From assembly GCA_025832235.1 (NCBI GenBank), contig GCA_025832235.1_3649.1: DNA of 64,000 nt; one strand, given 5' to 3'. The notes beneath the pieces were generated by a model that did no database searches, had not been told where the DNA came from, and saw only the letters and a program-made list of their open reading frames with translations. The first letter of the stretch is position 1, and each line of letters starts with the position of its first letter. Shown piece after piece: positions 368-64,000 of the stretch. This DNA comes from a phage. The position numbers were made by a program, and so were the translations under genes.

Positions 368-871
368 AGCTGCCTCCTCTTCAAGTTATAGAAAAACTCA
401 CTGTATCGCTTTGTAACGAGCTTTTCTATCAAACTGGTGCGATTGCATTACCTGGTATAGTTTATATAGCTGTGGAGCGATTTAGGGGCCTTCTTGTCAG
501 TTTCCACACATAAACTTCATCCAAGCTCGCGCGGGAGACTCTCAACCGACTCCTTACGGCGCTGGCAAGCTTTCGTCGGTGGTCCACATCAGTGCTCGGC
601 CTTTAGCCTGCGCTATCGCTTCGCTCCCACACATGTTAACAGACCTGTATGTATGAACTTCTGTTATTGTGTGCACCAAAGAGGCCCGGCATCTCGCCCC
701 TCGTAGGCGAGTGCCAATGAAGGGCCGACACTGCCCATAGTAAGTAATAAATTTAAAACATGGTACTTAGGATCTAGTATATTCTACATAAGTTAAGTAT
801 ATGTACTTAGTACCATAAGTACTAGATCTTTTATTTTTTATTATTTAGTTATTTTAGTTATATTCTTTATG

Positions 872-952
872 TGTCCGTATCACGGACAGTTAGTGTCCGT
901 ATTACGGGCAGATGTGTCCGCGTGACGGACAGTAGTGTCCGTATCACGGACA
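872..952. promoter_or_regulatory. array of four operator-like palindromes TGTCCGT-N3-ACGGACA
   Basis: copies at 872-888, 894-910, 915-931, 936-952; copies 1 and 4 identical perfect inverted repeats; 21-22 bp phasing. Confidence 0.6.
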
Positions 953-1027
953 GTTACTAACCTCTGTTCCAGAGCGAACATAAAACATACGAATCCTTAT
1001 AGTACAGATATTTAAGTTTTTACTGGT

Positions 1028-1378
1028 CTAACCAGTTGTTGACATTCGAATAACTTCTTCTGGTGGCAAAACTTTGGAAAATGTGCATCTTTTACCTCTC
1101 CCTTGTGTGGATATTTCAACCACTCCCGCACATTCTAAAGTTTTAACGCACGCTGCTGCTTTTGTTTTCTTTATTCCAACATCTGCTGCAATTTTCCTTG
1201 TGCTGGGTGTGAAGCGTGAACTTCCTCCAAGCTTATACCAGTTGTGCAGGTAGCAGTATACGATCTTGTCATACAAGTCAAGAACAACAACCTCCCCAGT
1301 TGTGTCATTCAAAACTTTTGACATAGATAGTATTTCAAGGGGGACTTTAAGATATAGCAGCTTATCCCCATCTTTCAT
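1028..1378 (-). CDS. putative winged-helix DNA-binding protein
   Basis: ORF with AGGAG RBS; helix-turn-helix-like segment STRKIAADVGIKKTKAAACVKTLECAGVV followed by basic wing; function inferred. Confidence 0.45.
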   Translation of the reverse strand: MKDGDKLLYLKVPLEILSMSKVLNDTTGEVVVLDLYDKIVYCYLHNWYKLGGSSRFTPSTRKIAADVGIKKTKAAACVKTLECAGVVEISTQGRGKRCTFSKVLPPEEVIRMSTTG

Positions 1379-1425
1379 ATCTCCTGATTCTCCTTGTGTG
1401 GCAATTTTCTTTAAAATAGCAGGGA

Positions 1426-1980
1426 TTACTCCCCGCTGTCAATAGCAAAACTCATTGCAATACGGTATGCCTCTTCTAATGGTAAGAGTCTCCCCCACAC
1501 ATCCCAACCGACATCAAACTGTCTGCCAAACAACTGTTGTGTGGTTCCGTGAGCATGACCGAACAGTTGGACTGATCCGTGAGGCTTTCTGTTCCACTTT
1601 GCAAACTGGTAATGGCTCATACAGATCAAATTCTTGTTGTGGCGAAGCTCGTAATAATCTACAACCTCATGACCGAACTCTTTCATAATTCTGACAGTCG
1701 TCCTTGTGTCATGGTTACCACGAACAAGAATAATATGTCCGTTCAACATATTTAGAACATCTGGGAGCAATTTGTTAATATTCTTATCATTAGTGCACGC
1801 AATATCTCCTAAGTGAAACACAGTGTCTGCAGGTGACACAACAGAGTTCCACTTGGTGATGATCCCCGCATTCATACTGTCAAGATTGTGATCATACTGA
1901 GATCTGTGTTTTTGACATGAGTCAAACTCCATGACCCGCTGGTGGAGAAAGTGTGTGTCGCTTGTTACAAAGTATTTCAT
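1426..1980 (-). CDS. calcineurin-like metallophosphoesterase (lambda-phosphatase/Pnkp-phosphatase type)
   Basis: motifs SDTHF, GDIA, GNHD, GHAH; start moved to ATG at 1980 (MKYFVTSDTHF) with GAGGAA RBS. Confidence 0.75.
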   Translation of the reverse strand: MKYFVTSDTHFLHQRVMEFDSCQKHRSQYDHNLDSMNAGIITKWNSVVSPADTVFHLGDIACTNDKNINKLLPDVLNMLNGHIILVRGNHDTRTTVRIMKEFGHEVVDYYELRHNKNLICMSHYQFAKWNRKPHGSVQLFGHAHGTTQQLFGRQFDVGWDVWGRLLPLEEAYRIAMSFAIDSGE

Positions 1981-1987
1981 ACATTCC

Positions 1988-2398
1988 TCATTTAAGTTTA
2001 ATGCAGTTTTTAAGCTGGCGTTCCATACGATCCACAACCCTGTCTGGAACATCATGAATGCTTTTACTACCATGGCGGTTTTCAACCACGATTACGGTAT
2101 AACTATACCCATGACTGATCGCCATGTCAATATATTCTTGCACATATTTTTCTTTTGTAAATGTATTACTTACCACGATACGGTCGTATCCCATACGCAT
2201 CATATCTTCTACGTTATCTTTGCACCATTTTGCTGCAAGTGTTACTTTACTTGCATCCCAGTTGTAATTGCCGTCATCGTCGTACCAGAACATGTCGTTC
2301 TCAAAATGTGGGTACAGACCTTCTAAAGATAGCGCATTTGCCAGTGTTGATTTGCCAGACCCTGGTAGACCACGCACGATATATAGCATTTTAGACAT
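1988..2398 (-). CDS. polynucleotide kinase-like P-loop kinase (T4 Pnk kinase-domain type)
   Basis: P-loop GLPGSGKST, later VVSNTFT resembling T4 Pnk; start moved to ATG at 2398 (MSKMLYIV) with GGAGGG RBS; stop 7 nt before phosphatase start. Confidence 0.65.
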   Translation of the reverse strand: MSKMLYIVRGLPGSGKSTLANALSLEGLYPHFENDMFWYDDDGNYNWDASKVTLAAKWCKDNVEDMMRMGYDRIVVSNTFTKEKYVQEYIDMAISHGYSYTVIVVENRHGSKSIHDVPDRVVDRMERQLKNCIKLK

Positions 2399-2498
2399 AG
2401 TAACCCTCCGTTTTAATTTCAATGATAGTATACCTAACTGTTTTGTTAATTTCAAGTGTTGACACTGGGTTATTTGTGTGGCAGGATAAAGGGACAAA

Positions 2499-3434
2499 AT
2501 GACAAATGAGGAACGTATGATGAAGTATTTTAATGCAGACGACCTAGTTGACAAAGGTCTTGTAACCAGCAGATATTACCCAGATCTTGGGTTAAAGATC
2601 TATAAATATGCCAGAAAAGTATTCTACAACAACTTATGGCATTTGTCTCCTCGATTACTGGAGTGCCGAGGCATTGTTGTCGGTAATGAAGGAAATGTTG
2701 TGGCATGGCCCTTCACAAAAGTGTTTAACTTGGGAGAAAACTCCACCAACCTGCCTGACAATAAGCTTGTGACGGCGGTAGAGAAAAAGAACGGATTCCT
2801 TGGTGTGGTGTCATCTCATAAAGGTGAACTATTGTTCTCAACAACCGGGTCTCTTGATTCCCCATATTGTAACCTTGCAAAGGAAACCATCCAGGAGCAA
2901 TGCGGTAATTTAGATCTTATCAAGAAGGTTATGGGCAATGAAAACATGACATTCATGTTTGAAATTTGTCACCCTTCAGATCCGCATATTGTTCAGGAAG
3001 ATCATGGCGCATATTTGATAGGTTGCAGATATAATGATTCTGGAATAATGCTACCAGAAGCCGCTTTAGATGGGATTGCCAAATACCTTGGTGCAAAACG
3101 TCCTCACACTGTGCGTGAAATTCCGTTCAGCTATGCAAAAGAGTTAGCTGCAGAAACAAGAGGTGAAGGATATATGATTCGTAAGCCTTACTACCCTTAT
3201 GATCTGCAGTTGAAGATCAAGTCTCCATACTATCTGGCACGAAAGGCCGTAATGAGGGGTAAAGCTTGGAAGATTTGGGATGATGATATCTTTAAACGTG
3301 TTGACGAAGAGTTTTACGGCATGGTAAACTTCATTCGTAACAACTACACAGAGGATGTATGGAACTGCCTCCTGGAGCAGGAACGCCGTGAGATACTTGA
3401 CTGCTATTTCCACAACGAGGACTATATGCAATGA
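2499..3434 (+). CDS. rnlA: RNA ligase 1 (T4 RnlA-like)
   Basis: ECRGI, KVFNLGEN and nucleotidyltransferase motif I EKKNG, motif IV EGYMIR, motif V KIK; resemblance to T4 Rnl1 from memory. Confidence 0.7.
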   Translation: MTNEERMMKYFNADDLVDKGLVTSRYYPDLGLKIYKYARKVFYNNLWHLSPRLLECRGIVVGNEGNVVAWPFTKVFNLGENSTNLPDNKLVTAVEKKNGFLGVVSSHKGELLFSTTGSLDSPYCNLAKETIQEQCGNLDLIKKVMGNENMTFMFEICHPSDPHIVQEDHGAYLIGCRYNDSGIMLPEAALDGIAKYLGAKRPHTVREIPFSYAKELAAETRGEGYMIRKPYYPYDLQLKIKSPYYLARKAVMRGKAWKIWDDDIFKRVDEEFYGMVNFIRNNYTEDVWNCLLEQERREILDCYFHNEDYMQ

Positions 3435-3781
3435 AGAAGTTGATTGTGTGGCTGGATGACTTGAGAGATCCGTCAAATTACGGGCTCCAAGACGCTGTTT
3501 GGCTAAAGAATTCCTCCGAGTTTATAGATTTTATTAACGATAATAGAAAGCTCTACAGACGCGTTTCTGAGTGGCACATGGACAACGACCTTGGAGAGTT
3601 GTTCGAAGGGTACGATTGCCTATCTATGTTGGAGGAAAAATTTGTATTTGGTAAGCCCCCTGTAGTTGACAACGTGAAGATTTTCGTGCATACTTCTAAC
3701 CCATCAGCGGCTCGTAAATTCATGCTTGCAGCTGACTCGTTTAAAAAGTTTGGAATAGAGATTAAACAAAACATCTACTGA
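3431..3781 (+). CDS. hypothetical protein, translationally coupled upstream of sirtuin
   Basis: ATGA overlap with rnlA stop; ends 9 nt before Sir2 start. Confidence 0.5.
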   Translation: MKKLIVWLDDLRDPSNYGLQDAVWLKNSSEFIDFINDNRKLYRRVSEWHMDNDLGELFEGYDCLSMLEEKFVFGKPPVVDNVKIFVHTSNPSAARKFMLAADSFKKFGIEIKQNIY

Positions 3782-3789
3782 GGACACTT

Positions 3790-4551
3790 ATGCGACGACT
3801 GATTATTATCTCCGGTGCTGGTTTGAGCGCTGAATCTGGTATTCCCACTTTCCGATCTGGTAGCACTGCAATGTGGGAGAATTTCAGCATCGATGAGGTG
3901 TGCAACATCCACACCTTTGCCAAGAACTACTACAAGGTGCATGACTTTTACAATGCACGTCGTGTAGCTCTAGGCGGTGTTGAGCCTAACCTTGCACATC
4001 TTCGGATCGCTGAGTGGTATTCCCGCTGGTCTGGTCGTGTGATCAACCTTACCACCAATGTAGATGATTTGCTGGAGCGTGCGGGTGTAAAACATGAAGA
4101 TATTTTACATGTTCACGGGTATTTGCCAGAAATAGTCTATGAGGACGATGAAGGAAGTGACGTCATTAAGGACATTGGATACTCTGAGGTAGATGCAGGA
4201 AAGTATACCTGGGTTAAACCTAATGTGGTGTTCTTCGGAGAAGTAGCTCCGAAGTATACAGACATGTATGACCTGTTGACTTCTCTTACAAGCAATGATA
4301 TGGTTATCCTTGTAGGGTGTTCCAACACAGTTATCAATTTTAACTGGGAGCTATTCCCTGCCTGCAATAAGGGAACCAAACTACTGATCGTTAATAAATA
4401 CGACTCACAGCATCTAGAGGAGAATGGCATTTCACGTAGTGATATTTACCAGTATGAGGATCGCGGCATCCCAGTTTGGTTTAACGGTGCGGTTGATGCC
4501 TTCTCTGATAAAACATTCATTGAGACCGTAGAAAACTTTATGGAACTTTAA
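3790..4551 (+). CDS. Sir2-family NAD-dependent deacylase / ADP-ribosyltransferase
   Basis: sirtuin signature GAGLSAESGIPTFRSG near N-terminus, later FFGE; GAGGA RBS. Confidence 0.8.
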   Translation: MRRLIIISGAGLSAESGIPTFRSGSTAMWENFSIDEVCNIHTFAKNYYKVHDFYNARRVALGGVEPNLAHLRIAEWYSRWSGRVINLTTNVDDLLERAGVKHEDILHVHGYLPEIVYEDDEGSDVIKDIGYSEVDAGKYTWVKPNVVFFGEVAPKYTDMYDLLTSLTSNDMVILVGCSNTVINFNWELFPACNKGTKLLIVNKYDSQHLEENGISRSDIYQYEDRGIPVWFNGAVDAFSDKTFIETVENFMEL

Positions 4552-4564
4552 AAGGAGACCTTTA

Positions 4565-5278
4565 ATGCTGAATACTAAATTAATTGACAACCTGGAAAAA
4601 CTGTCCCAACCTGAAAACTACCTTTGGTCTGCCAACTGGGTGGAAAACTGGAACCGTGTGGCAGCTAAAGTGAAAAAATCATACACACCGTTCGAATTAC
4701 AGCTTAGCTTCATTGAGGAAGAGTTCAATGAAGTTTTGGAAGAGCTGGAAAAAGGGGATGGTGGAGATCACCTGCTAAAAGAGGCCTGCGATCTTCACGT
4801 TGTCACAAGTTATGCCGCTTATCTTGTTAATGACAATCACGAAAAGTGGTCAAACCTGTTTGATAATCCACGAGGTCTTAAGTTCAAGATCGGTGAGTTC
4901 TATGATACACTGATCGCTGCGAAAAACACCTCTAAGCAAAGAGCATCCGCTTACCGCTTAGCAGAGTTGTCAACAGCTTTGCTGTTCCAGCTTCGCGGCG
5001 ATGTGTGCGGGATGATGCGTAAGGTTCTCAAATCGAATGACAGCAAGTTTGCACGGGTCAACCATCTACGGTATTCACACGGTGCCAGTGCAGATATGCC
5101 TGCTGAACAACTCATCGAGTTGGAGATTAAAGATCTTGAGCGACGCTTTGATGGTCGATATGAAGGTTTTGTTGCTAAGGAAGAATTCTACAACGGTAAT
5201 AAAGTTATCATATTCCTTGACAGTAAAGGTAAGATCATGAAGCCTTCGAGCTTCAAGGATGTAGCAGAGTATATTTAA
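4565..5278 (+). CDS. hypothetical protein, possible MazG-like NTP pyrophosphohydrolase N-domain
   Basis: EExxE...E..D pattern (IEEEFNEVLEELEKGD...LLKEACDL); followed by hairpin at about 5284-5300. Confidence 0.4.
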   Translation: MLNTKLIDNLEKLSQPENYLWSANWVENWNRVAAKVKKSYTPFELQLSFIEEEFNEVLEELEKGDGGDHLLKEACDLHVVTSYAAYLVNDNHEKWSNLFDNPRGLKFKIGEFYDTLIAAKNTSKQRASAYRLAELSTALLFQLRGDVCGMMRKVLKSNDSKFARVNHLRYSHGASADMPAEQLIELEIKDLERRFDGRYEGFVAKEEFYNGNKVIIFLDSKGKIMKPSSFKDVAEYI

Positions 5279-5341
5279 CAACATGGCCGGGATTACCCGG
5301 CTTTACTTGTTGTGGAAAGTATGCAAGTGAGGCAGATAGTT

Positions 5342-5650
5342 ATGTACAAGCACTCTAGAGATCTTGAAAACGATGCTGTGTTTGGGGATCAGATGAAAGA
5401 GTTGGTTAAACTTATAGGCAGGATAGAGGATAAGTTTGACACTAAGATCTACATCGACAGCAAAGTATTCAACCACAAAATATGGACAAATCTGTGTGTT
5501 GGACTACATGGAGATAAAGATGTGGTAAATTTAGTTGTAATTAAGTTCATAGTGTGGCAGAATAAAACTATAAATTATTACGATCCACACCTGCTTGTTT
5601 ACCCAATAAAAGATCTATTAGATAAGGAGGACTGCAATGCCGTTATTTAA
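5342..5650 (+). CDS. hypothetical protein
   Basis: ORF; start moved to ATG 5342 with GAGG RBS (ORF-track start 5312 lies inside a hairpin). Confidence 0.4.
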   Translation: MYKHSRDLENDAVFGDQMKELVKLIGRIEDKFDTKIYIDSKVFNHKIWTNLCVGLHGDKDVVNLVVIKFIVWQNKTINYYDPHLLVYPIKDLLDKEDCNAVI

Positions 5651-5906
5651 TCTTGCTAAACCTGTAGAAGCACACCAGTTTGACGGAAGCTCTTCATCAG
5701 TATCTGATCTGCAACGGTGGATTGATACAGGTGTGTTTACATCGTCACCTGTTCGGACCAGAGATCTTCGTCGCATGTGTGAGCTTGTAGAGCCGTTTGG
5801 TAACCTAGTCTTGTACCAGGGTGATTGGCTTGTTGATTTTATGGGGGACTGGTTGGTAATGAGTAAAGAAGAGATGTTTAAAATTTTTAAGGAAGAGGCC
5901 GAGTAA
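5637..5906 (+). CDS. hypothetical protein
   Basis: ORF in compact same-strand array. Confidence 0.4.
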   Translation: MPLFNLAKPVEAHQFDGSSSSVSDLQRWIDTGVFTSSPVRTRDLRRMCELVEPFGNLVLYQGDWLVDFMGDWLVMSKEEMFKIFKEEAE

Positions 5907-7189
5907 TGCATCAAATCAAAACAACACTGTACGCACTGAACAAAGATGGCAGCTACCAACAGTGGAAAGTATTCACGGATGGTGATAAGGTTATCGTAGA
6001 GTTTGGCAAGCTTGATGGTAAACTGCAATACAAAGAGACGATCTGCACACCTAAGAACGTGGGTCGCGCCAATGAAACTACAGCTGAGCAACAGGCCGAG
6101 CTGGAAGCGATCAGTAAGTGGGAAAAACAGGTCCGACTCGGGTACGTGGAGAGTATGGAAGATTGTGAGCAAGGTGTTGATCTTTTACCCATGTTGGTGC
6201 ATGACTACCTGAAGCGTGGCAAGGCACTTAAATTACCTTGCTGGATCTTGCGTAAGTTAGATGGCCTTCGTCTACTTGTTGTTTTCCAGAATGGTGAGCC
6301 TAAATTTATTTCCCGTGGTAATAAGTCCTACCCTATTCAAGGAAAGCTTCTGGAGCAACTTCGCTCTTTCCACCTAACCACCGGGATTAAACAGCTCGAC
6401 GGAGAGCTCTATATTCATGGTCTACCTCTGCAGAAAATAGTGTCTCTTGCTAAACGGTGGCGCACACAGGAAGAAATTCAGGCCGAGATCGATAAAGACT
6501 ACAAGGCAGATAAAAAACGCCGTCAGGCTGCGATTAAAGCAGGTTTAGCAACATACAAAAACTTCAACAAGGTGGACATTCCTGTTGATGTTGAGCCTGT
6601 TCGTGATGATTTGCGTTACGGAGGGTACTGCAGCTACGACTTAGAGTATCATATTTTCGATATTCCTAGCGATAAGGTGTGGTGGGATCCTGAAACAGAG
6701 TCTGGTCGCTGTAAGGATCTTATGGAGGCAAACGGTGCTATTACTTCTTTGATGCTTGATCATATTAAGGTTGTTGATGCAGAGCTTGCATATACGGTTG
6801 ATCGGTGCGAAGAGTCTGTTGGTATATTTATGTCTGAAGGATATGAAGGTACCATTATGCGTAACTTCTGTGGTAAATATGAGTATGGTCAGCGAACATC
6901 TGAAGCATTGAAATGGAAAAAGTTCAACGACGCAGAGGTGAAAGTTATTGACGTTGAGAAAGATAAGAATGATGAAGGTGTTCTTATCTGTGTTGACAAG
7001 GAAGGTGTTGTTGTTAAAATGAAGATGAAAGGCACGCACGAGGAGCGTAGCTATGACAGGATGCAGGAAATGATCGGAAAGTTCGTCACCTTCAAATATC
7101 AAGCGAGGACAGAAGACAACAACTACCAATTCCCTGTCGGTATCTGCGTCCGAAATGTTAACCCAGATACTTGGGAGGTTCTGGAATGA
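5906..7189 (+). CDS. ATP-dependent DNA ligase
   Basis: motif I KLDGLR, DGELY, motif IV EGTIMR, motif V LKWKK; AAGGAAGAGG RBS. Confidence 0.8.
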   Translation: MHQIKTTLYALNKDGSYQQWKVFTDGDKVIVEFGKLDGKLQYKETICTPKNVGRANETTAEQQAELEAISKWEKQVRLGYVESMEDCEQGVDLLPMLVHDYLKRGKALKLPCWILRKLDGLRLLVVFQNGEPKFISRGNKSYPIQGKLLEQLRSFHLTTGIKQLDGELYIHGLPLQKIVSLAKRWRTQEEIQAEIDKDYKADKKRRQAAIKAGLATYKNFNKVDIPVDVEPVRDDLRYGGYCSYDLEYHIFDIPSDKVWWDPETESGRCKDLMEANGAITSLMLDHIKVVDAELAYTVDRCEESVGIFMSEGYEGTIMRNFCGKYEYGQRTSEALKWKKFNDAEVKVIDVEKDKNDEGVLICVDKEGVVVKMKMKGTHEERSYDRMQEMIGKFVTFKYQARTEDNNYQFPVGICVRNVNPDTWEVLE

Positions 7190-7342
7190 TGTAGGGAGGT
7201 TCAGTAGATAACGGTAGCCAATTGAATAAGTGTTTTCAATTTGCACCTACATATACCCTGATGTATGCACTGTGCAACCTAGCCACACCACACAGTGGTG
7301 CTGATCGGGGCCTCGTTATGAGTAAACTGGAGAGTATGAAAA

Positions 7343-43213: not shown

Positions 43214-43300
43214 CACTGTTCACGTATAGATTGTTCCCGCATAGACTGTTTACGCCTGGATAGTTTACACCTTGACAGTTTACGCATAGATGATAAGCCA
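43214..43300. repeat. iteron-like tandem series of 15-16 bp repeats
   Basis: TAGAtTGTTcCCGC / TAGAcTGTTTACGC / TAGTTTACAC / GACAGTTTACGC in tandem. Confidence 0.6.
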
Positions 43301-43544
43301 TGCCATTCGTTTGCATGAAAACAATTAGCAAGTTAACAATTAACAAGTTAATAATATATGACATAATATAAAAGCAGGGCAACTATTATTAGATCTATAG
43401 TTGCCTTGCTTATTATGTCATGATTAACTGAATATAAGGCAACTATGATCTGATTAATAGATTGCAGACAAACTATCACGGGGGTGATGGTTACTGCTTT
43501 TATATTATGTCGCGACTCCGTCGCGCCATGCCATTCGTTTGCAT
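43297..43544. repeat. 20-bp perfect direct repeat GCCATGCCATTCGTTTGCAT flanking a nested palindrome cluster
   Basis: copies at 43297-43316 and 43525-43544; between them 18-bp perfect inverted repeat GACATAATATAAAAGCAG (43360-43377 / 43494-43511) enclosing GGCAACTAT/ATAGTTGCC palindromes. Confidence 0.65.
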
Positions 43545-56176: not shown

Positions 56177-56635
56177 TCAACACTTTTTGTACTCCACCAC
56201 GATAATATTCATATCAAAAGTGGCAAGGTTAATAACGTCCTCTACGTGCTCCCACTTCAAACCGCCTATGCCGCACCCGATCTTAGGGATGTAGAATGGT
56301 AAAGTCGATCCACTGAATACCTCATTGACTAGCTCAAAGCCTTTCAGGATTGAGAAATATTCAGCATTAGGTCCTGGGTAGAACTGAGTATACAGATTGA
56401 TTCCGTAGACAATACCTCTCGGAGATAAGTGCTCCCATCGGGAGAACGCACCCAGTTTACTTAGGCAACCGTGTCTGGTCTCTTTGTCAGCTGCCAATGC
56501 TTGAGGGAACTCACGGGCAATCTGTTTTGCTATCCCCTTGCCCATTGTGTGGAAGCAGTTACAACCGTGGATCAGGTGACCAGCACCGCTCTTAAAAAGG
56601 GAGATTAAATCTCCCTCTACAGTATCAATAATCAC
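56177..56635 (-). CDS. macro-domain protein (ADP-ribose binding/processing)
   Basis: IIDTVEGDLISL...HLIHGCNCFHTMGKGIAKQIAREFP and IPKIGCGIGGL fit macro-domain motifs; start set to GTG 56635. Confidence 0.55.
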   Translation of the reverse strand: MIIDTVEGDLISLFKSGAGHLIHGCNCFHTMGKGIAKQIAREFPQALAADKETRHGCLSKLGAFSRWEHLSPRGIVYGINLYTQFYPGPNAEYFSILKGFELVNEVFSGSTLPFYIPKIGCGIGGLKWEHVEDVINLATFDMNIIVVEYKKC

Positions 56636-63282: not shown

Positions 63283-63558
63283 CAATAGTTCAGGTAGGTC
63301 GTTAAGCTACCCCGCACCATTACGTGCATAGCCATACGTTTTCACGTAGGATCGGACCATCTCATATTCCTATGATAAGCAACCACAGGAATCCTCCCAT
63401 TTCGACCGCACTTGCTGGTCTACTTCCTTTCGGAATGGCCTCTGAGCGTTCGCTCTTTTGAGCGCTTCGTTGCGGATTACCTTGCCATAAGGTTTAGGCT
63501 TCCCGCAGTTAAAGAGGTTATTCGACATAGATTACTCTATGAAGCCACAATGTTATTT
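63283..63558 (-). ncRNA. group I self-splicing intron in DNA polymerase gene (no internal ORF)
   Basis: 5' exon ends CAU, intron ends G; elements ACUGCGGGAAGCC (P), GUAAUCCGCAACG (Q), GUAGACCAGC (R) and GAGAUGGUCCG (S); length restores frame. Confidence 0.7.
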
Positions 63559-64000
63559 ATGGTAATAAATAATACGACGAACACCTTCATCGTACCACCC
63601 ACGCTTCACCATCTGGCGGTGCATGAGTATTCCAACTAAGTCACACAGCGATGCACCACCATTTTGTTGGTATGCATTAAGTAAAGAGTGTTTAGATCTG
63701 GTCCAGATAGCATGACCATCAAAAGAGTAGATAAACTTCTTACCCGTTGCTTCCCAGAATTTCTCCAGATCTTCTTTACGCCCCTTAAGACCAGGGTTGG
63801 CATCCCAGAGTGCATCGATTACCCTTTGTCCCAACTCTGGAGAGATGTCCAGCATATCTGCAACTTTATCTTTTTGTGCCCCATACATAACCCCATACGT
63901 GATAGGTTTACCGTCGTTACGGGAAATCTCCTTGCCTGCTACAGAAGAGTAAGCTTTGGCGTTATTACAGTTACCGCACACTGCCACTTTACCATTCCTT
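63559..64000 (-). CDS. family A DNA polymerase, 5' exon (partial, continues beyond window end)
   Basis: motif B-like region ...AKAYSSV...YGVMYGAQ... and NAYQQNGGASLCDL; ends ...VRRIIYYH at the splice site. Confidence 0.7.

Follow-up and report, generated by a model that had tools for sequence, protein, structure and literature searches.

What does a sirtuin do in a phage genome, and what is the product of the small open reading frame (ORF) directly upstream of it? The question is raised by a 64,000-nucleotide (nt) stretch of phage DNA (contig GCA_025832235.1_3649.1, hereafter the window), in which a sequence-only reading had noticed a Sir2-family enzyme with a coupled partner of 116 amino acids (aa) and a separate macro-domain gene. 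We found the three ORFs at the positions given in table 1. The window is a segment of a Vequintavirus, an rV5-like Escherichia coli phage: over positions 1000-7300, it shares 98.6% identity with Escherichia phage slur16 and 97.6-98.4% with rV5-group phages. The two adjacent ORFs are genes 2 and 3 of a four-gene plus-strand operon encoding an Rnl1-type RNA ligase, a cyclic-phosphate processing receiver domain (cREC) protein, the sirtuin, and a MazG-like protein. Genes for a polynucleotide-kinase-like kinase and a metallophosphoesterase run divergently from this operon. The initial reading had seen neither the identity of the partner nor these four neighbors. We regard the domain identities and the operon structure as practically certain. 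The cassette is likely an RNA-end repair system. That the two ORFs belong to a sirtuin-centred, nicotinamide adenine dinucleotide (NAD)-dependent RNA-repair cassette is, in our judgment, evenly balanced.

The 116-aa partner is a genuine gene, and the profile search identified it as a member of Pfam PF20274, cREC_REC (E 3e-15, 57.1 bits for a cut-off of 27). Residues common to 28 aligned homologs, down to 35% identity, are W7, D9, and D10 (following strand 1), D51-N-D53-L-G (following strand 3), and H87-T-S-N-P91 and K96 (following strand 4). The AlphaFold2 model derived from the homolog alignment is confident (predicted local distance difference test, pLDDT, 91.4) and has a receiver (CheY-like) fold, in which strands 1 and 3 carry the conserved acidic residues at their C-terminal ends. 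Homologs were reached by an alignment-based search of viral contigs, as the single-sequence search returned only a near-identical phage. Sequence searches of solved structures with cREC, the RNA ligase, and the kinase yielded nothing usable; a CD58 match to cREC (E 0.037) was rejected as noise. As in the literature, cREC is predicted here to have cyclic phosphodiesterase activity. What the sequence-only reading had missed is that the cREC gene is joined to the upstream RNA ligase gene: the ligase TGA stop codon overlaps the cREC ATG (ATGA, 3431-3434). Its view of a small upstream ORF cotranscribed with the sirtuin holds. The spacer between the two genes is 8 nt long (ggacactt), so that the sirtuin ATG begins at the ninth nt past the stop codon, and a GAGGA Shine-Dalgarno sequence at 3780-3784 overlaps the cREC stop codon.

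The 253-aa protein is a clear Sir2-family enzyme, as first proposed. It matches Pfam SIR2 (PF02146, E 5.5e-27, 95.3 bits for a cut-off of 24) over model positions 1-178 of 180 and phrog_2162 with an E value of 3e-109. In the alignment to E. coli CobB (1s5p), the motifs GAGLSAESGIPTFR and TTNVDD and the catalytic His in HVH(109)GY are all present, and the catalytic residues are intact: the NAD loop G9-A-G-L-S13, F21, R22, N90-x-D92, and H109. Among 29 members of the clade, F21, R22, Y54, R57, N90, D92, and H109 are invariant, and the class III motif Y54-x-x-R57 is kept. By sequence, its nearest relatives of solved structure are CobB 1s5p and human SIRT5; the AlphaFold2 model (pLDDT 89.8) has CobB as its best Foldseek matches (TM 0.75/0.83). 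Defence-type SIR2 NADases (ThsA, DSR, and SIR2-HerA) were rejected as relatives, since the top 50 Foldseek matches are all classical sirtuins and the Pfam match is to PF02146. No conserved pair of zinc-binding cysteines occurs in any of the 29 clade sequences, and the window sirtuin has none between H109 and K143; the beta-hairpin scaffold of the zinc module is still present in the model. All seven NCBIfam CobB-family models score below their cut-offs (best, 122 bits for a cut-off of 243; range of cut-offs, 221-395), which suggests at the sequence level that the protein has diverged from ordinary deacylases. The sirtuin thus represents a phage-specific, CobB-like clade devoid of zinc-binding cysteines. 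This clade is found in 1010 phage records, with many T5-like phages among the matches listed.

These features bear directly on the function given by database annotations, an ordinary NAD-dependent lysine deacylase of the CobB/SIRT5 type that would edit the acyl marks carried by host or phage proteins. The position of the gene in the operon would then reflect co-expression timing or regulation of RNA-repair enzymes, not RNA chemistry. CobB and SIRT5 are indeed the best matches in sequence and fold, with the NAD pocket, the catalytic His, and Y-x-x-R in common with the phage sirtuin; the clade keeps His109, Y54-x-x-R57 (which binds succinyl or malonyl groups in class III), and the FFGE loop without exception, and T5 and phi92-like phages carry an ortholog without an adjoining RNA ligase. 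However, all four zinc-binding cysteines are absent from every clade member examined, identity in the structural alignment is only about 26%, and the scores of at most 122 bits stay below the NCBIfam equivalog cut-offs. Moreover, the host already has CobB, this sirtuin occurs in phages in an RNA-repair context, and the link to RNA-end-processing enzymes recurs in separate lineages. We consider the deacylase function unlikely.

The sirtuin and cREC lie in a neighborhood that has been described before. Iyer, Burroughs, Anantharaman, and Aravind (2022, Viruses 14:1977; PMC9503650, section 3.7.3) defined a sirtuin-centred phage RNA-repair neighborhood, their configuration 2, with Escherichia phage V5 and Proteus phage Mydo as prototypes. 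Its gene set consists of a sirtuin, a T4-like RNA ligase, a cREC, a nucleotide kinase, a pyrophosphatase of the MazG superfamily, and sometimes a calcineurin-like phosphoesterase. In their prediction, the sirtuin would handle 2'-phosphates in the manner of KptA/Tpt1, and the opening of cyclic phosphates, whether on RNA or on ADP-ribose cyclic phosphate, would fall to cREC and the other esterases. The cREC domain was named in a 2021 jumbo-phage paper by the same authors, and its action on ADP-ribose cyclic phosphate was proposed, and Nudix-cREC fusions reported, in the 2022 study (PMC9503650). All six genes are found within window positions 1426-5278, and the window belongs to the named rV5 lineage; we see no substantive difference from configuration 2. 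The neighborhood is therefore already known in this phage group as a 2022 computational prediction. Added here are the operon boundaries, the structure models, the clade-wide loss of the zinc cysteines, the variable gene order, and a cREC in T5 unlinked to the sirtuin.

The other four genes of the cassette were identified by profile matches (table 1), and the PHROG matches agree with those to Pfam. The RNA ligase passes the Pfam cut-off and matches phrog_562 (E 1.3e-66) and, below cut-off, the NCBIfam RNA_lig_T4_1 model (E 4e-10); its start in RefSeq relatives corresponds to window position 2517. The kinase matches Pfam AAA_33 (E 1.1e-9, above cut-off), phrog_2071, and the polynucleotide kinase family phrog_505 (E 1.1e-9). 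Its stop codon is separated by 7 nt from the start of the phosphoesterase gene. The phosphoesterase matches phrog_547 (phosphoesterase, E 5.5e-52), and its best match among solved structures is 1xm7; it is a candidate RNA 3'-end or cyclic-phosphate healing enzyme. The MazG-like gene follows the sirtuin gene after a 13-nt spacer containing AAGGAG. The Pfam search with its product gave no match, and a homolog in a related phage (L002) has a weak PRA-PH match. The hairpin that follows, a pattern match with a weak T-run, is the probable end of the operon, and the promoter-like sites between the two transcription units are consensus matches only.

Table 1. Features of the sirtuin-cREC locus and the macro-domain gene (window positions)
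Feature	Position	Strand	Characteristics
Calcineurin-like metallophosphoesterase	1426..1980	-	184 aa, ATG at 1980; Pfam Metallophos E 5e-6, above cut-off
P-loop kinase, polynucleotide-kinase type	1988..2398	-	136 aa, ATG at 2398; Walker A GLPGSGKST
Divergent intergenic region between kinase (-) and ligase (+) operons	2399..2498	.	Minus-strand promoter-like sites 2455-2427 and 2449-2422
T4 Rnl1-family ATP-dependent RNA ligase	2499..3434	+	311 aa; Pfam RNA_lig_T4_1 E 6.4e-15, full model length
cREC protein	3431..3781	+	116 aa; ATG 3431, TGA stop 3779-3781
Sirtuin	3790..4551	+	253 aa; ATG 3790, TAA stop 4549-4551
MazG-superfamily-like nucleotide pyrophosphohydrolase	4565..5278	+	237 aa, final operon gene; phrog_671 nucleotide pyrophosphohydrolase E 5e-22
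Terminator-like GC-rich hairpin GGCCGGG-ATTA-CCCGGCT	5285..5302	+	Directly after MazG-like stop
Macro-domain protein	56177..56635	-	152 aa, GTG start at 56635; Pfam Macro 27.5 bits, cut-off 22

How such a cassette could work can be outlined from these predicted activities. A host nuclease, for example an anticodon nuclease, would cut tRNA or another RNA, leaving 2',3'-cyclic phosphate and 5'-OH ends. The kinase would phosphorylate the 5'-OH, cREC and/or the metallophosphoesterase would open the cyclic phosphate, and the ligase would seal the break. The sirtuin, in the role of Tpt1/KptA, would then remove the 2'-phosphate using NAD+, and the by-product ADP-ribose cyclic phosphate might be linearised by cREC. 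By analogy, sirtuin chemistry would parallel both steps of Tpt1: attack of an oxygen nucleophile on C1'' of NAD+, followed by attack of a His-activated 2''-OH on an acyl or phosphoryl center. Both reactions would pass through or end in a 1'',2''-cyclic species, and the Y-x-x-R pair, which binds carboxylates in SIRT5, could bind a phosphate. The analogy is functional and does not imply membership of one family, as Tpt1 has an ADP-ribosyltransferase fold with an R-H-R-R catalytic tetrad (PMC8120803), whereas the phage protein has a sirtuin fold. Three observations support a role in RNA-end processing: the clade is linked to RNA-end phosphoesterases in separate lineages, its zinc module is lost throughout, and the sirtuin gene lies inside the ligase operon. 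A Tpt1-like 2'-phosphotransferase activity of the sirtuin is in our view a reasonable possibility that falls somewhat short of an even chance. The full proposal, an NAD-dependent RNA 2'-phosphotransferase sirtuin acting with a receiver-fold cyclic phosphodiesterase, is slightly more tentative still.

The proposed logic is that of the fungal and plant heal-and-seal pathway (the Trl1 cyclic phosphodiesterase-kinase-ligase, Tpt1, Cpd1, and Poa1p): opening of the cyclic phosphate, phosphorylation of the 5'-OH, sealing by an Rnl1-family ligase, NAD+-dependent removal of the 2'-phosphate, and clean-up of ADP-ribose cyclic phosphate. PF09511, the Pfam family of the window ligase, also covers the Trl1 ligase domain. 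In the phage, where the activities are predicted, the 2'-phosphotransferase would be a sirtuin with a Rossmann fold instead of the ADP-ribosyltransferase fold of Tpt1, and the cyclic phosphodiesterase a receiver-fold protein instead of a 2H enzyme. A second comparison is the tRNA repair by T4 Pnkp and Rnl1 that counters the anticodon nuclease PrrC, which likewise combines a phage kinase, a 3'-end phosphoesterase, an Rnl1-family ligase, and phage-borne tRNAs. In T4, kinase and HAD phosphatase are fused in one protein, whereas here the kinase is encoded separately and the phosphoesterase is calcineurin-like. T4 repair needs no NAD+, sirtuin, or cREC. No tRNA genes were found within the window. 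The seven clustered tRNA genes of slur16 (Pro, Met, Thr, Ser, Tyr, Arg, and one of unassigned identity) are located at 95063-95876, about 1.5-2.3 kb past the left edge of the window, on the same strand as the kinase-phosphoesterase operon and about 2.5 kb from the phosphoesterase gene.

To what extent do these genes travel together? We retrieved the surroundings of cREC and sirtuin homologs and used the window proteins as queries against them. In the window and in about 20 phage loci, cREC is accompanied by RNA-repair or ADP-ribose-processing genes and by no histidine kinase. Among Vequintavirinae-like phages, four arrangements are distinguishable. Arrangement A, the rV5 type, has the gene order of the window. 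In arrangement B (PVP-SE1, KNP2, and Ro1 types), the phosphoesterase gene is followed at a distance by the ligase, cREC, kinase, sirtuin, and DNA ligase genes and, further on, by the MazG-like gene; the cREC, about 60% identical to that of the window, again overlaps the ligase. Arrangement C (PD06 type) comprises cREC, phosphoesterase, ligase, kinase, DNA ligase, and MazG-like genes, with no sirtuin gene within 8 kb. Arrangement D (phi92/05F01 type) consists of cREC, phosphoesterase, DNA ligase, and MazG-like genes, without an RNA ligase or kinase at the locus. Arrangements A, B, and C all keep the kinase beside the RNA ligase and cREC, MazG-like homologs are near cREC in arrangements A to D, and homologs of the phosphoesterase adjoin cREC in almost all related loci. 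At these loci, the sirtuin accompanies the ligase and the kinase and not vice versa, and cREC keeps company with the phosphoesterase and the MazG-like gene more faithfully than with the sirtuin. It is the junction of ligase and cREC, not that of cREC and sirtuin, that is tight and stable. As cREC persists at loci devoid of sirtuin, ligase, and kinase, its adjacency to the sirtuin gene is specific to the rV5 arrangement.

More distant cREC homologs were found in five phage loci (IMG/VR L019-L023, 28-33% identity) and in seven bacterial genomes or metagenome-assembled genomes (MAGs). Their neighbors are mostly unannotatable or housekeeping genes, with no histidine kinase seen among them, and these neighborhoods neither support nor contradict the link to RNA repair. 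The recurrent exception is a metallophosphoesterase, present in L022, L023, and L040, with one MazG. In a Clostridia MAG (L040:5018-6663) and in a distant IMG/VR phage contig (L022:5043-7272), the distance between cREC and a calcineurin-like phosphoesterase gene is at most about 1 kb. The pairing of cREC with a phosphoesterase is more persistent than that of cREC with the sirtuin.

T5-like phages provide a second setting for the clade. They carry an orthologous sirtuin, 57-59% identical, in one operon with a HAD_SAK_2 'RNA repair' phosphatase, as observed in Erwinia phage KEY and in T5, where T5.102 (58% identical to the window sirtuin) lies with T5.105. The latter HAD_SAK_2 protein is mislabelled 'Sir2' in RefSeq. 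These operons link the sirtuin clade to RNA-end phosphoesterases in a separate lineage. T5 also encodes a cREC: T5.084 (L031:42745-43062, minus strand), annotated as hypothetical, matches PF20274 (E 3.4e-15) and has the motifs DD, FDNDL, and TSNP. It is located 13 kb from the T5 sirtuin gene. The recognition of this unlabelled cREC, unlinked to the sirtuin, is a small addition. T5 further has a metallophosphoesterase, T5.034. The search of T5 positions 1 to 113,000, beyond which the genome is a copy of the left terminal repeat, revealed no Rnl1, kinase, or macro homolog. As T5 keeps cREC, sirtuin, and HAD_SAK_2 without an RNA ligase, the cREC-sirtuin pair may be a self-standing module for end healing or for clean-up of ADP-ribose cyclic phosphate, one that might use host ligases or need no ligation.

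In the phi92-like phage UP17 (vB_EcoM_UP17), the sirtuin gene lies among unknown genes, far from cREC and about 4 kb downstream of a gene for an Acb2/Tad1-hairpin protein (L025:2918-3193), a family of anti-CBASS/anti-Thoeris sponges. No RNA ligase was found within 7 kb on either side of it. The small ORFs preceding the sirtuin gene in Erwinia phage KEY (118 aa) and UP17 (168 aa) were considered as diverged cRECs and rejected, as they have neither the cREC motifs nor a Pfam match. The combination of a sirtuin with a small coupled ORF is therefore not conserved as a two-gene unit.

Several related phages of about 146-152 kb (L003:380-2949, L002:2376-5107, and L004:1068-4165) carry, on the strand opposite to the cREC region and 2-5 kb upstream of it, NAPRTase-family and PRPP-synthetase-like genes, and L003 has Band_7 and NADAR genes downstream as well. 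The NAPRTase and PRPP-synthetase-like pair resembles the NARP1 NAD+-reconstitution pathway.

The T5 and UP17 loci raise another explanation, in which the sirtuin and cREC would form a ligase-independent module acting on soluble molecules derived from NAD+ or ADP-ribose. Such a module would destroy or recycle an immune signal or a toxic metabolite, ADP-ribose-based or bearing a cyclic phosphate. This would be a counter-defence, close to the idea of the sequence-only reading that the phage manipulates host NAD or ADP-ribose signalling. It is consistent with the presence in T5 of T5.084, T5.102, and T5.105 without an Rnl1-type ligase, with the UP17 sirtuin about 4 kb from a sponge-family protein, with the NAPRTase and PRPP-synthetase-like pair 3-5 kb from cREC in related phages, and with the proposed action of cREC on ADP-ribose cyclic phosphate and the Nudix-cREC fusions (PMC9503650). 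Nevertheless, no known signal fits, and the tightest links of the pair in the window are to the RNA ligase, through the ATGA overlap, and to the kinase. The window also lacks NAD-salvage genes: with the proteins of relatives as queries, we found no NAD-salvage, NADAR, Band-7, or HAD_SAK homologs in it, and no NAPRTase or PRPP-synthetase-like homologs, although relatives carry both. We regard such a module as quite improbable. Likewise, nothing was found that points to a defence against NAD-depleting immunity, as had been suggested at first.

The RNA-repair cassette with a Tpt1-like sirtuin has to be weighed against several observations that tell against it. The kinase, the phosphoesterase, and the Rnl1 ligase already suffice for a T4-style repair that leaves no 2'-phosphate, so that a Tpt1-like step is not obviously needed. 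The sirtuin keeps the class III Y54/R57 pair and the FGE substrate loop typical of protein deacylases, and orthologs 50-58% identical to it occur without an RNA ligase, genome-wide in T5 and within 7 kb in UP17. cREC is kept beside the phosphoesterase, DNA ligase, and MazG-like genes where sirtuin, ligase, and kinase are absent from the locus. Much of the linkage is found among related phages with a common genome architecture and may be inherited gene order, which inflates it. Finally, our literature search for a biochemical or genetic test of any phage sirtuin or cREC found only the two comparative-genomics papers.

The macro-domain gene was the third element of the initial description, and its identification stands up to the profile search (table 1). 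The same 459-nt gene is annotated by RefSeq in slur16. Its product matches phrog_335 (E 1.3e-58) and, below cut-off, NCBIfam antitoxin_DarG (E 1.6e-12); among solved structures, it matches Mycobacterium tuberculosis DarG (5m3i, the best, E 4e-7), Poa1p (6lfu, E 2e-6), and TARG1. BLASTP identified T4 Tk.4 as a homolog over the full length (39% identity across 153 aligned positions, E 4e-40). The motif NLYTQF.PGPN is common to the window protein and Tk.4 (L028:1501-1968), where M. tuberculosis DarG has NFPTKKHWRAPS. Both proteins have a Gln at the position of the catalytic Lys of DarG, whose mutation inactivates DarG, so their chemistry may differ from that of DarG. According to a 2025 preprint, tk.4 is the only T4 gene conditionally required on a DarTG2 host, as confirmed by a clean knock-out; it was renamed adfM (anti-DarT factor macrodomain), its protection being demonstrated for T4, with T5 as the DarTG2-sensitive control in the same figure (bioRxiv 10.1101/2025.11.20.689424). 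We judge the macro gene to be separate from the sirtuin system; it probably encodes an AdfM-type glycohydrolase that would guard the phage against DarT2.

The first interpretation of the locus, in which the sirtuin ADP-ribosylates a target and the macro domain erases the mark, is not borne out. Both genes are present in one genome, and macro homologs also occur in other sirtuin-carrying Vequintavirinae-like phages such as Ro1 and pEp_SNUABM_01. In a milder form, the match to yeast Poa1p, an ADP-ribose 1''-phosphate phosphatase, would point to removal of the phosphate from ADP-ribose 1''-phosphate made downstream of the sirtuin; the macro protein may perform such a clean-up, although nothing requires this role. 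Yet the genes are 52 kb apart, on opposite strands and in different gene blocks, the macro gene lying inside a long run of small early genes. Their distributions differ as well: the macro family is much more widespread (2723 phage records, compared with 1010 for the sirtuin) and includes, among the matches listed, T4-like, Felixounavirus-like, and PAK_P4-like phages without this sirtuin, while T5 has the sirtuin and no macro homolog. The homolog in T4, a phage with no sirtuin, has a demonstrated anti-DarTG2 phenotype, and the 2022 study states that the sirtuin clade is not coupled to a macro gene (PMC9503650). The resemblance to the SirTM-macro operons of Staphylococcus aureus and Streptococcus pyogenes is limited to the occurrence of a sirtuin and a macro domain in the same genome. 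In the SirTM class, the catalytic His is replaced by Gln, and the operon encodes a MacroD-type hydrolase, GcvH-L, as well as a lipoate ligase. The phage sirtuin lacks this signature and keeps His109, the distant macro gene is of the DarG/Tk.4 type, and no GcvH or LplA was detected among the sirtuin's neighbors by Pfam and PHROG matches. A writer/eraser pair, even in its milder form, is thus highly improbable. Of the overall interpretation first given, the phage origin, the intact sirtuin, the cotranscribed small ORF, and the macro gene remain, and the ADP-ribosylation pairing does not.

Other features of the window lie outside these loci. A group I intron (Rfam RF00028, 64.7 bits for a gathering score of 50, full model length) is present at 63333-63568 on the minus strand, near the window's right end, where it lies at the DNA polymerase gene region or shortly downstream of it; in some relatives, such as phage 241Ecol014PP, this site holds an additional HNH endonuclease. 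At 43215-43355 there are three short tandem arrays with a 15-bp unit, each of 2.4-2.8 copies. The slur16 record contains a 2.5-kb stretch without annotated genes (positions 684-3232), which is expected from coordinate mapping to match about 40.2-42.7 kb of the window.

Two annotations can be corrected from this analysis: the product called hypothetical that is encoded upstream of the sirtuin should be labelled a cREC, and the one at 56177-56635, listed as a 'phosphatase', an AdfM-like macrodomain. Sirtuins are established as protein deacylases, ADP-ribosyltransferases, and NADases, and action on a nucleic-acid phosphate is not known for any of them; receiver domains serve as phospho-acceptor switches and are not known as phosphodiesterases. 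If the sirtuin is an RNA 2'-phosphotransferase and cREC a phosphodiesterase, the cassette would hold two never-demonstrated activities in two of the best-studied superfamilies, and their demonstration would be new. The sirtuin clade is carried by more than 1000 sequenced phage genomes, including T5 and many therapeutic-candidate phages of E. coli, Salmonella, and Klebsiella. Defence systems that cleave tRNA are now being discovered rapidly, and prediction of phage host range would benefit from knowing whether the cassette repairs the damage they cause.

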